Below, in pieces: positions 10,550 through 15,746 of a DNA stretch of 15,746 bases. The notes beneath the pieces are model-generated. The model was not told where the DNA came from and searched no databases. It worked only from the letters and a program-made list of their open reading frames with translations. How positions within the stretch are numbered: position 1 is the first letter of the stretch; every line of letters starts with the position of its first letter. The stretch is from a virus (lineage: Duplodnaviria > Heunggongvirae > Uroviricota > Caudoviricetes): IMG/VR virus record IMGVR_UViG_3300048590_001376. The stretch is one strand, 5' to 3'. A program made the position numbers and the translations under genes.

Positions 10550-11185
10550 CTACTTGAATGAATCCCACACCGAGCCGCCCGTAGCGACCGGCTGCGTCGA
10601 CTGCTGCGTCGTCTTGTGGGTCGGAGTCGGCTTGTTTTCCTGACTGTGGCCATTGCCATTGCTAGCCGGTGCGCCGCCGAGTAAGGCGATCCACTCCGGG
10701 TCTTTCGGAATGCCCTCTGCCTTTTTCGACAGCGGGTGCATGAACGACCAGCCGGCGTCGGGGAACTTCTTGTCAGCGCTGGCGCCGGTGCCGGGCCGCT
10801 CGTCGATGTCGGCGCAGTATTGCCGACCCACGACCTCCTCGATCGGAATATCGACTTCCTCGCCGCGAGCCTTGGCATCCTGCCACTGCTGATCGGTCGC
10901 CAGATCGGTCGCGATCGTGAACAACCGCAGCGCGTTCTGTGCGCCTTCGGACGTGCTGTCCGGGTTAAAGTAATTGGTCATCGTGCGGCCGGTCTGGTCG
11001 CCATCGGCGGGATTCTTCGGCTTACCAGCCAAGACAACCGCCTTGATCGACAGCTTGCGGCCTTTGTCGCCGTCTTTCAGCTCGTAGCTCTCGACGCTGA
11101 AATGATAGCGGCCGGGACGAGGCATCTTGCCGCCGCCGCTGCTTTCGCCTTCACTGACGTTATCCGACTTGCATCGCAGACTCAT
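10550..11185 (-). CDS. Probable phage single-stranded DNA-binding protein (DUF669-like), 211 aa
   Basis: SD AGGAG before ATG 11185. PRPGRYHFSV N-terminal motif, beta-rich core, disordered tail ending WDSFK, and location directly after an AAA_24 ATPase. Confidence 0.65.
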   Translation of the reverse strand: MSLRCKSDNVSEGESSGGGKMPRPGRYHFSVESYELKDGDKGRKLSIKAVVLAGKPKNPADGDQTGRTMTNYFNPDSTSEGAQNALRLFTIATDLATDQQWQDAKARGEEVDIPIEEVVGRQYCADIDERPGTGASADKKFPDAGWSFMHPLSKKAEGIPKDPEWIALLGGAPASNGNGHSQENKPTPTHKTTQQSTQPVATGGSVWDSFK

Positions 11186-13214: not shown

Positions 13215-14300
13215 TTAAGTCCTCACCCATCGGCTTAAGCCGTCAAGAATGTTCTCCAGCGCGGTGACTTGCTTGGCGGTCACTCGGTCGCGCTGGTCGA
13301 TGTAATTGTTGATCGATCCGGCGGTTTCGGATGCGCTGGAGCCGAAATCCTCGGCGTCCTCCGGCAAGTCTTCGACCATGCCCATGATTTGGTCGATCAG
13401 CTCGCGGGCGTGCTCCACGTCGCCATCGACGCTCTTGGCATTAGTCGCCGACCGCAAGCCCTTTGGCTGTTCAGGCTGCGCCACCGGCGCGGCTGGGGGC
13501 GTGCTACGTCCGTTGTCCCCAGCCGCGCCGCCGTTATTAGTCAGTCCATCGAAAAGTCGCAGGCTCGTGGCGACATGGAGCGTGCATTCCAGGTCGCGGC
13601 GTAAATAAGCAATCGCGGCCTTGCGATCTTCGCGCCATAGCCGAGCGAAGTCCGCGCCGCTGCCGTTCTTGCGCGGCCCGCCGAAGTAGGCGCTCAACAA
13701 GTCCAGACTGACGCGATCACCCCAGACGCCACAACCCCAGACTGCCGCCGTGTCGACCAGCATCGGGTGCCAGTAGCGGCGGTTTTTGTCGAGCACCCAG
13801 GACGGAAAGTCGACGCCGAGCAACCAGCTCCGTCGCACCAAAAACGGCATGTCGAAAGAGTGAATGCAATGGCCGATATAGCGGCCTTGCGGCGACTCTG
13901 CATAAGCGGCCTGGAGCATGCTCCAGAACTGCCGGATCAGCGCGGCCTCGTCGTCATTGCCATCGGCGATCATGCTGCGGCCATCGGGCATCATGTAGCC
14001 AATGGCCAGGACACAGCCAGTGCCAGCGCACAACGCGGCCTTTTCGATCAGGCCCGCTTCGTACTCGGCTTTCTTGTTGACTAGCAGTTGGTCGTACTGC
14101 TCGATTGCGGCCTCGTGCTCCGCTCGCTTGCCCGCAATCTTCTCAGCGGCCTTCGCGGAGCCGAGATTGCCAACCTTGACGCTGTTGGGGTCGAACTCGC
14201 CGGGATGCGGGTACTGCGACGGGTCGAACGGACCATGCACATCCGGGAGTCGTTCGAGCGGCAGACATGACGTTTCAATGTCGAACACAAGCGCGGGCAT
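13215..14300 (-). CDS. DnaQ-superfamily 3'-5' exonuclease (PolB-exo-related) with C-terminal extension (361 aa)
   Basis: ExoI FDIET, ExoII GHCIHSFDMPFL, ExoIII YLRRDL. SD GGAG before ATG 14300. Confidence 0.85.
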   Translation of the reverse strand: MPALVFDIETSCLPLERLPDVHGPFDPSQYPHPGEFDPNSVKVGNLGSAKAAEKIAGKRAEHEAAIEQYDQLLVNKKAEYEAGLIEKAALCAGTGCVLAIGYMMPDGRSMIADGNDDEAALIRQFWSMLQAAYAESPQGRYIGHCIHSFDMPFLVRRSWLLGVDFPSWVLDKNRRYWHPMLVDTAAVWGCGVWGDRVSLDLLSAYFGGPRKNGSGADFARLWREDRKAAIAYLRRDLECTLHVATSLRLFDGLTNNGGAAGDNGRSTPPAAPVAQPEQPKGLRSATNAKSVDGDVEHARELIDQIMGMVEDLPEDAEDFGSSASETAGSINNYIDQRDRVTAKQVTALENILDGLSRWVRT

Positions 14301-14324: not shown

Positions 14325-14356
14325 GCCACTCGGCGGCACAATTACCGCCGAGTGGC
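14325..14356. other. Perfect 12-bp inverted repeat hairpin between csrA and the exonuclease gene
   Basis: GCCACTCGGCGG-CACAATTA-CCGCCGAGTGGC. There is no U-tract on the minus strand. Confidence 0.75.
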
Positions 14357-14391
14357 GAACCGAAATGCCTCAAACACTGCCCTTGCCTCGA

Positions 14392-14628
14392 CTAGCCTGT
14401 CGGCTCAGTCGGAACGACATCCGTATCGCTCGCCGGATTGACTTCCCTGTCGGCGGCATCCCTGTACTGCTGTGGAAGATGGTCCCTTACTTCCGATCGC
14501 CGGATGGGGATTTCCTTCGGGGCTTCGACGCCGATCTGAACTTGGGCGCCGTTGTAGCCAACGAAGAAAACCTTGATGTCGTCACCGATCTCAAGGGATT
14601 GTCCGGGTCGCCGGGAGAGAACTAAGAT
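14392..14628 (-). CDS. csrA: CsrA/RsmA-family translational regulator with non-canonical ATC start (78 aa)
   Basis: Manual translation gives (I/M)LVLSRRPGQSLEIGDDIKVFFVGYNGAQVQIGVEAPKEIPIRRSEV, matching the CsrA pattern MLVLSRK.GE.I.IGDDI.....V.IGI.AP..V.I.R.E. SD AAGGAGGT lies 5 nt before the ATC. Confidence 0.88.
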   Translation of the reverse strand: MLVLSRRPGQSLEIGDDIKVFFVGYNGAQVQIGVEAPKEIPIRRSEVRDHLPQQYRDAADREVNPASDTDVVPTEPTG

Positions 14629-15230
14629 GGCACACCTCCTTTTGTGCTGAAATTCGTAAAAGCAAAATCTCCGAATACTTCAATCGCCGCATTGTCATAC
14701 GCCATGGCGGCTTCTGTTTCGTCAGCGAAGTGACCAATGTGAATCGACTTCCGGTCGACATGCAGTAAAACTCGCCACTTGTTGGCAGCCTTGTTCCAGT
14801 GGACCCCCTTGAACTGCGATGTCTTCGCGTTCTTCCGCTTCCTGGTATTCCGCATTTGCTGCGTGCGGGTGGCCCATCGGCAATTACCCGGTTCGTAGTG
14901 GCCGTTGGTGTCGCGGCGATCCAGTTCAAGGCCGTCGGCATATCCATTGGAAATTGCCCAATCCCGGAAGGTCTCAAAGCTCGTTTTCCATTCCTCGCAA
15001 ACCGCGATTCCGCGTGCGCCGTAATACTCGTATGCGGGGCATGATCGAAGGTAGCATCGCGATTTCATGGATCGCCAAGCCAAGTACAGCCTCGACTTGC
15101 TTTGGCCGTGCGTTCTGGCGGGCGACTGAAACCCGGCTACGCGACATGGCACAGAGCAGAATCGCCTCCGTTTGCTTGGCGGGTGGCAAAACGACCTTCC
15201 GCAAACAGGGCACGTCGCAGCAATAGGCAT
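14622..15230 (-). CDS. HNH endonuclease with N-terminal Zn finger and C-terminal AP2 domain (homing-endonuclease-like, 202 aa)
   Basis: CPVCGRSF...FCSVPC, then YLAWRSMKSRC...YGARGIAVCEEW...LELDRRDTNGHYEPGNCRWAT (HNH), then FKGVHW...KWRV...HIGHFADETEAAMAYD (AP2). ATG 15230 follows AAGGTG. Confidence 0.9.
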   Translation of the reverse strand: MPIAATCPVCGRSFCHPPSKRRRFCSVPCRVAGFQSPARTHGQSKSRLYLAWRSMKSRCYLRSCPAYEYYGARGIAVCEEWKTSFETFRDWAISNGYADGLELDRRDTNGHYEPGNCRWATRTQQMRNTRKRKNAKTSQFKGVHWNKAANKWRVLLHVDRKSIHIGHFADETEAAMAYDNAAIEVFGDFAFTNFSTKGGVPS

Positions 15231-15247
15231 CCATGCACCTTGAATCC

Positions 15248-15275
15248 AAAACGCGACTTGCTCAAGAAAGTCGCG
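15248..15275 (-). terminator. Putative intrinsic terminator/attenuator in the early-operon leader
   Basis: Minus strand CGCGACTT-TCTTGAGC-AAGTCGCG followed by TTTT. A T4 run also precedes it. Confidence 0.55.
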
Positions 15276-15475
15276 CAAAAGCTACCAACCGAGAGAGTGC
15301 CAACAAGGCAGCCGCCACCTTGGCGGTTCAAACCCTAGAAAACCGCTGCGGGTGGTTCCCTGGGGCCGGTAGCTTGATTAACAACTGACGCTGCACAGTG
15401 CGCCAGGTCGCCCGGAGAGCGGGCCTGAAGCACTAGGTTTTAGGGGTGCCGCTTAATGTCCGGCTGACAACCAAG

Positions 15476-15504
15476 ACTCTAAACTAAAGTTTATTTCGTG
15501 TCAA
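15476..15504 (-). promoter_or_regulatory. Sigma70 promoter TTGACA-N17-TAGAGT, leftward
   Basis: Perfect -35 (15499-15504) overlapping the HTH gene TGA, a 17-nt spacer and -10 TAGAGT (15476-15481). Confidence 0.75.
15480..15493. promoter_or_regulatory. Putative operator TAAACTAAAGTTTA
   Basis: TAAACT-N2-AGTTTA palindrome within the promoter spacer and -10; 13/14 identical to 1998-2011. Confidence 0.7.
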
Positions 15505-15746
15505 GCGGTTCGCCTTGGATTTTTTTGACACGGAGAAAGTAGCTCGTCAATTTTGACAGCAAGCGCTTCGGCCACTCTAGCAAGGAACGCGGCCGAAGGT
15601 AACTTAATCCCGCGAACCATGAGCGAAATCCTCATTTCGCTCTCACCAATCTTGCGAGCCAAGTCTGATTGGTTCATGCCGCGCAACAGCAGCAATCGCC
15701 GAACATTTTCGGCGATATACATTTTTGCTTCTTCGTCCGTGAGCAC
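15501..15746 (-). CDS. XRE/Cro-CI family HTH transcriptional regulator (start at the window edge, may be 5'-truncated)
   Basis: IAENVRRLLLLRGMNQSDLARKIGESEMRISLMVRGIKLPSAAFLARVAEAL, a typical HTH_3 pattern. Confidence 0.9.
   Translation of the reverse strand: MLTDEEAKMYIAENVRRLLLLRGMNQSDLARKIGESEMRISLMVRGIKLPSAAFLARVAEALAVKIDELLSPCQKNPRRTA

Follow-up and report, generated by a model that had tools for sequence, protein, structure and literature searches.

An ATC codon at the initiator position of a phage csrA gene: a probable lineage-specific start-codon mutation

Introduction

How should a phage regulator gene be understood whose frame is open and whose ribosome-binding site is strong, but whose initiator codon reads ATC? 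The gene in question lies near one end of the window, the 15,746-nt stretch of DNA analyzed here, which forms the final 15.7 kb of a provirus record of 86,345 bp in IMG/VR (IMGVR_UViG_3300048590_001376, Caudoviricetes). It resembles csrA, and phage-borne csrA has been documented in 30 of 2517 phage genomes (PMC7366521). The original prediction, made from the letters of the window, proposed that the phage deliberately throttles this global regulator by means of the weak start, and named a recent inactivating mutation and a sequencing error as the alternatives. Here we examine this locus against sequence profiles, metagenome contigs and related phage lineages. The features that enter the argument are collected in Table 1.

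Table 1. Features of the csrA locus and its surroundings (window positions)
Feature	Position	Strand	Remarks
PolB-exonuclease-like 3'-5' exonuclease gene	13215..14300	-	Pfam PF10108, 22.9 bits; 324 homologues
12-bp perfect stem GCCACTCGGCGG / CCGCCGAGTGGC	14325..14356	-	In the csrA-exonuclease gap; 8-nt loop, no U-tract
Antisense ORF	14365..14625	+	Partly annotated in the metagenome, as a 48-aa ORF in place of csrA (L083:2176-2322)
csrA-like frame	14392..14628	-	ATC, 77 sense codons and TAG (14394-14392); 78-aa product
HNH-AP2 endonuclease-like gene	14622..15278	-	Longest ORF; metagenome annotation starts at 15068
ATC at the initiator Met position	14626..14628	-	ATG in relatives; same ATC in L083 and L086
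Small hairpin GCACA[AAAGGAGG]TGTGC	14630..14647	-	SD/GGA in the loop; MFE and centroid folds, hairpin scan
Shine-Dalgarno (SD) AAGGAGGT	14634..14641	-	5-nt spacer GTGCC, then ATC
Nearest upstream in-frame stop TGA	14680..14682	-	17 codons before ATC
Promoter-like site TTGACA-17-TAGAGT	15476..15504	-	Precedes the HNH-csrA-exonuclease operon; closely follows the HTH_3 gene
HTH_3 repressor-like gene	15501..15746		Pfam E 9e-11

Results

The minus-strand frame encodes a protein of the CsrA family. Its translation matches the Pfam CsrA profile PF02599 at 65 bits (cut-off 27; E 5.9e-18) over profile positions 2-49 of 53, a score that a six-frame profile search of the record returned again, and the product matches the PHROG family phrog_9500, 'CsrA-like regulator', at E 2.2e-18. 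Solved CsrA/RsmE chains, including 2JPP (RsmE) and 1Y00 (E. coli CsrA), align at E values of about 3e-11, always from residue 2. The CsrA assignment that the original prediction made for this frame is therefore well founded. Residues of strands beta1 and beta5 of CsrA (L2, L4, R6, R7 ... R44, E46) are important for RNA binding, according to mutagenesis in E. coli. In an alignment with 11 relatives, the phage product keeps all invariant family positions (L2, L4, R6, I14, A36, P37, R44 and E46); L2, L4, R6, R44 and E46 are invariant across all 12 sequences, and R7 is also present. The product thus passes the curated cut-off over the whole domain with its beta1/beta5 residues kept, as a member of the CsrA/RsmA family should, and the profile match, the IMG/VR provirus record and the phage early-gene neighbors together identify it as a phage CsrA-like regulator. 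It belongs to the same length class as CsrA/RsmA/RsmE proteins and matches their profile over the whole domain from residue 2, but differs from them in having ATC in place of the initiator codon. Unlike the solved CsrA/RsmE proteins, it carries an acidic, Pro-rich tail of 25 residues without a match, and unlike the usual CsrA it has Q for R in the V-R-I-G motif and R for H before R44.

An open frame that lacks a start is by itself not rare: in the 86-kb record, 38 of 642 frames of at least 70 codons are start-less, nearly all of them off-frames of real genes. It is because of the CsrA homology that we count this frame as a genuine phage csrA gene, the product of which is predicted to form the interlocked homodimer typical of CsrA and to bind RNA that contains GGA. 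It is the only start-less frame of at least 70 codons in the record with coding-like GC3 that no overlapping gene explains. Start-less coding frames are no habit of this phage, and csrA is the sole unexplained case in 86 kb.

The codon usage of csrA is atypical for the phage: GTT, with a share of 15.6% in long genes, makes up five of its nine Val codons, whereas GTG, with a share of 31% there, is missing, an absence that is only mildly unusual (P about 0.035), and Leu uses TTA and CTT. GC3 is 0.65 in csrA and 0.61 in the HNH-AP2 gene, and about 0.75 in neighboring genes. The HNH-csrA unit may have been acquired later.

The Ile codon of the csrA frame aligns exactly with the initiator Met, or Val from GTG, of other proteins, and the closest database proteins have M or V at this position. 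From the upstream TGA to the end of the gene, the frame contains no ATG, GTG or TTG, and the ORF listing reports nothing there. The SD is strong and its spacing is that used by the phage's other genes. The sequence AAGGAGGT occurs only twice in the 86-kb record, both strands counted, the other copy preceding a GTG-started gene, and AGGAGG is found at 17 sites of the coding strand but at none of the opposite strand; given this rarity and one-strandedness, we regard the ribosome-binding site of csrA as authentic. The upstream HNH-AP2 ORF ends ...CCA TCT TAG, with its TAG (14624-14622) inside csrA codons 2-3, so that the two genes overlap in ATCTTAG. In all of these respects (ATC aligned with Met1, no canonical start back to the upstream stop, an ideally spaced SD and an overlap with the HNH stop) direct reading and alignment bear the original prediction out. 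In about a dozen genes of the record, for example those that start at window positions 11185 and 5328 (-), a leader of the approximate form TTTCCTGAAAACCCTAGTGGAG extends into the ribosome-binding site. This start-associated motif is absent before csrA, which places csrA outside that gene set.

Relative to the HNH gene, csrA lies in the -1 frame, and this frame stays open over the 17 codons that precede ATC. A programmed -1 frameshift at A-AAA-G (14643 region), where Lys-tRNA could re-pair on ACA-AAA, would hence yield an HNH-AP2-CsrA fusion that needs no start codon at all. The site, however, lacks an X XXY YYZ heptamer as well as a suitably spaced stimulatory structure, and the SD-like element follows the slip site instead of preceding it. 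Neither an AP2 nor an HNH domain is found in the ten longest CsrA-containing database proteins, and the csrA of relatives is a gene by itself, with an ATG and SD of its own, including behind an HNH-AP2 homologue in one lineage (L003). With no heptamer, no stimulator and no fused HNH-AP2-CsrA homologues, we rejected the frameshift fusion as highly improbable.

The ATC codon differs from the ancestral ATG by a single base that is known from assembled contigs. Had the true base been G, misread or misassembled, the gene would simply start with ATG. The overlapping HNH gene provides a check on this base: the C of ATC falls within its penultimate codon, TCT, which would read TGT (Cys) if csrA began with ATG. 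By exact-protein look-up, the annotated HNH product ending ..G-G-V-P-S was found on 11 metagenome contigs. The exact downstream exonuclease product was likewise present on 11 contigs and the 48-aa antisense ORF, which covers csrA codons 2-50, on 10. ATC was read directly in L083 and L086, contigs of two further samples (3300061720 and 3300048836). Contigs from four public sequencing runs included none over 14599-14975. Since 11 contigs imply the same base and ATC was read in two of the samples, a sequencing error at this codon is practically excluded, and this alternative of the original prediction falls away. The 11 contigs probably represent one population; they confirm the base and are not independent evolutionary samples. 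Contigs of 151 nt identical to the window (13800-14120) occur in a biofilm metagenome (X2) and an activated-sludge metagenome (X3), both from other studies, indicating that the phage or its lysogen occurs beyond a single sample series. Soil and sludge runs contain relatives at 90% and 83% identity.

What relatives have at the same codon was determined by tracing the homologues of the PolB-exonuclease-like gene to their contigs. A csrA gene lies just upstream of the exonuclease gene in seven related lineages (L088/89, L090-92, L095, L096, L098/99, L100/101 and L087); the two genes are adjacent in some, have one or two small genes between them in others, and are fused in frame in L087. Together with L002/L003, all eight related lineages have ATG at the codon aligned with ATC. 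The ATG has its own SD, 6-9 nt upstream, in L088/89, L090-92, L095, L096, L098/99, L100/101 and L002/L003. The first four codons of L088 are ATG TTA GTG CTG, and those of the window are ATC TTA GTT CTC, from which the simplest history is one G>C transversion in an ancestral ATG. We thus read ATC as derived from ATG by a lineage-specific G>C change, a comparison in which the relatives' ATG is silent on present selection.

Eight of eight lineages with ATG, at 33-47% identity to the window csrA, is not the pattern of an infC-type start, in which a near-cognate codon is conserved among orthologues. The conserved ATC or other non-ATG start that was to be looked for in homologues did not appear, and the proposal of deliberate throttling is left without comparative support from these distant relatives. 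We consider it unlikely that the codon is a maintained adaptive throttle, a near-cognate start kept by selection that holds a global regulator very low. The perfect SD, the intact ORF and the intact conserved residues speak for such a throttle. Its SD and GGA lie in the loop of a hairpin flanked by ACA...UGU, and ACAAGGAG also precedes csrA in L090 and L096. The ACA-GGA-UGU hairpin architecture resembles the SELEX consensus for CsrA sites. CsrA might accordingly bind the GGA in this loop and repress its own message, and we infer a candidate CsrA site here. However, any SD contains GGA, and the 101-nt leader, taken in full, shows no unusual stability (z = +1.04). Moreover, seven single-base changes of ATG abolish it as a canonical start and four of these yield a near-cognate codon, which makes ATC by itself uninformative.

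No relative covering the csrA start is closer than about 45-58% protein identity, and the best database proteins reach 56-58%. Close csrA relatives were found neither by a word-indexed protein search nor with a degenerate DNA pattern for L-E-I-G-D-D-I-K-V, nor by IMG/VR peptide scans with csrA, the exonuclease, a 575-aa neighbor and the helicase, nor among metagenome contigs queried with csrA and the exonuclease, nor by blastn against phages. Genome contigs yielded one 43% csrA match, with an ATG start, in a Thermoleophilaceae MAG. A relative of about 83% nucleotide identity from an activated-sludge run covers csrA codons 11-62 only. Of its 27 differences, 18 were judged; they make nine amino acid changes in the csrA frame, all conservative, which points to purifying selection on the csrA lineage for most of its history. 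In the antisense frame the same 18 differences make twelve changes, mostly radical.

This bears on the antisense ORF, which was listed at the locus in the gene tables inspected, in which csrA never was. If the antisense ORF were the real gene, the CsrA likeness would be a relic. It does have a canonical ATG and a GC3 of 0.66. Against this, a homologue search with the ORF, meant also to uncover further hidden csrA genes, returned the ORF alone, the neighboring genes and the 17 AGGAGG motifs all lie on the other strand, most substitutions of the 83% relative are radical when read in its frame, and the CsrA match opposite it has an E value of 6e-18. The chance that it is the real gene is negligible, and the 48-aa ORF is most likely spurious, a systematic mis-call. 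Gene callers accept only ATG, GTG and TTG, which explains why csrA went uncalled and the antisense ORF was called.

The gene upstream of csrA encodes a product that matches phrog_374 (HNH endonuclease) at E 4e-49 and Pfam AP2 at 30 bits, below the cut-off. Its best homologue, 47% identical and with the same N-terminal Cys motif, is in L002/L003 (L003:2935-3859), where csrA also follows it, after a 78-nt gap and with an ATG start. That HNH-AP2 immediately precedes csrA in two phages with no other relationship would be in keeping with site-specific homing next to csrA.

The G>C change could also have been selected rather than be a product of decay, in one of two versions. In the first, the overlap with the HNH stop would tie csrA output to termination-reinitiation at a near-cognate codon, making the allele a reinitiation-dependent hypomorph. 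In the second, the HNH-AP2 protein is a homing-type nuclease that may recognize the conserved 5' end of csrA, such that a carrier needs a changed target to escape self-cleavage; the occurrence of HNH-AP2 upstream of csrA in the two unrelated lineages (the window and L002/L003) is consistent with this version. We regard selection by either route as quite unlikely.

No PHROG family matched the exonuclease gene downstream of csrA, and blastn found no near DNA match to the csrA-exonuclease module in the phage collection. In L087, protein P0217 (331 aa, 2 contigs) has a divergent CsrA-like domain fused in frame to the exonuclease N-terminus, which hints at a functional link between the two. The 97-nt spacer between csrA and the exonuclease gene folds at -38 kcal/mol. 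Its 12-bp stem could serve in processing, stability or attenuation; folding the csrA-exonuclease gap of two relatives showed no such stem in either. The window contains no Rfam family. In a longer contig, host genes begin just beyond the HTH_3 gene.

Discussion

We propose, at a probability of roughly 60%, that the csrA start of this phage carries a recent, lineage-specific G>C down-mutation that is fixed in the sampled population and renders the gene a strong hypomorph or near-null, and that it is not a conserved design. The csrA gene would be the second gene of a repressor-controlled early operon that runs from HNH-AP2 through csrA to the exonuclease and onward. In this phage lineage, one G>C substitution would have turned the initiator ATG into ATC and left the other expression signals intact, namely the 8-nt SD at 5-nt spacing, the open 78-codon frame and the conserved residues. 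Any CsrA protein would then have to start at AUC with initiator tRNA, giving Met1. The strong SD, as well as ribosomes terminating on the HNH stop 2 nt downstream, might assist this initiation. In E. coli, initiation at AUC yields 1-2% of the AUG output in one reporter set and 0.02-3% in others, with an N-terminal Met (bioRxiv 10.1101/063800), which is why we take the allele to be a strong hypomorph or near-null. Output of csrA might be perhaps 1-3% of normal, or none, a size of reduction taken from E. coli reporters and not from this host.

Within the reading of a recent down-mutation, we give neutral first-step decay a chance of about two in three, and selection for a short-term lowering of a costly regulator about one in three. 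The gene shows none of the further lesions of a decayed pseudogene: its reading frame is uninterrupted, its SD is perfect, its conserved residues are retained, and the damage is limited to the start codon. This lack of further ORF or SD decay is expected after a recent loss, but would equally be expected of a maintained, functional weak start. A point against our preferred reading is that the relatives covering the start, at most about 45-58% identical in protein, are too distant to date the change.

Weak start codons are known to set the output of regulators. The AUU start of infC is a regulatory near-cognate start, and the weak starts of infC and lacI are conserved across species. For lacI, the weak GTG start is kept under selection (PMC11445065), and in Listeria ATG>ATA/ATT changes in rsbW are adaptive regulator hypomorphs that arise and fix quickly (PMC13068326). 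These tuned regulators resemble csrA here and lend the throttle some plausibility. Unlike infC and lacI, the phage gene has relatives that all use ATG, and its translation from ATC is putative.

Other mobile elements carry CsrA homologues as well. The RsmM-type alleles of P. aeruginosa phages and the CsrA-like regulators of Vibrio phages are likewise carried by temperate phages. A tblastn search with csrA matched 54 phage records at 38-47% identity, all aligned from residue 1. These listed matches lie under annotated genes, whereas the csrA described here has no canonical start, is missed by gene callers and, again unlike the known phage alleles, is part of a conserved csrA-exonuclease early module. 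The CsrA homologue RsmQ of plasmid pQBR103 is reported to be able to take over host translational control (PMC9928087). It is similar in being a mobile element's own CsrA-family regulator, but is borne by a plasmid in a different host, and the function of the phage gene is predicted only.

Phage csrA genes and start-codon hypomorphs are thus both already known, and the ATC start is unusual but unconserved. The biological lesson is limited to one more phage-borne csrA with a start-codon lesion of uncertain significance. Firmer is the practical lesson that a well-conserved regulator gene can be invisible to standard callers: virome surveys of auxiliary regulators that follow the callers' start-codon rule will miss such alleles. 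Besides this annotation lesson, the conserved csrA-exonuclease early module, including one fusion, is worth keeping. Across uncultured phages, csrA appears as a conserved early gene linked to a PolB-type exonuclease and fused to it in one lineage, which points to CsrA as a core part of the take-over program of these phages.

Fusions of CsrA domains are also seen among the database matches to the csrA product (P0001-P0071). The best-scoring ones contain two or four CsrA domains in tandem (single-chain dimers), and a few fuse CsrA to ribosomal protein S17 (P0056), the N-terminal domain of IF2 (P0051) or an anti-sigma zinc finger (P0071).
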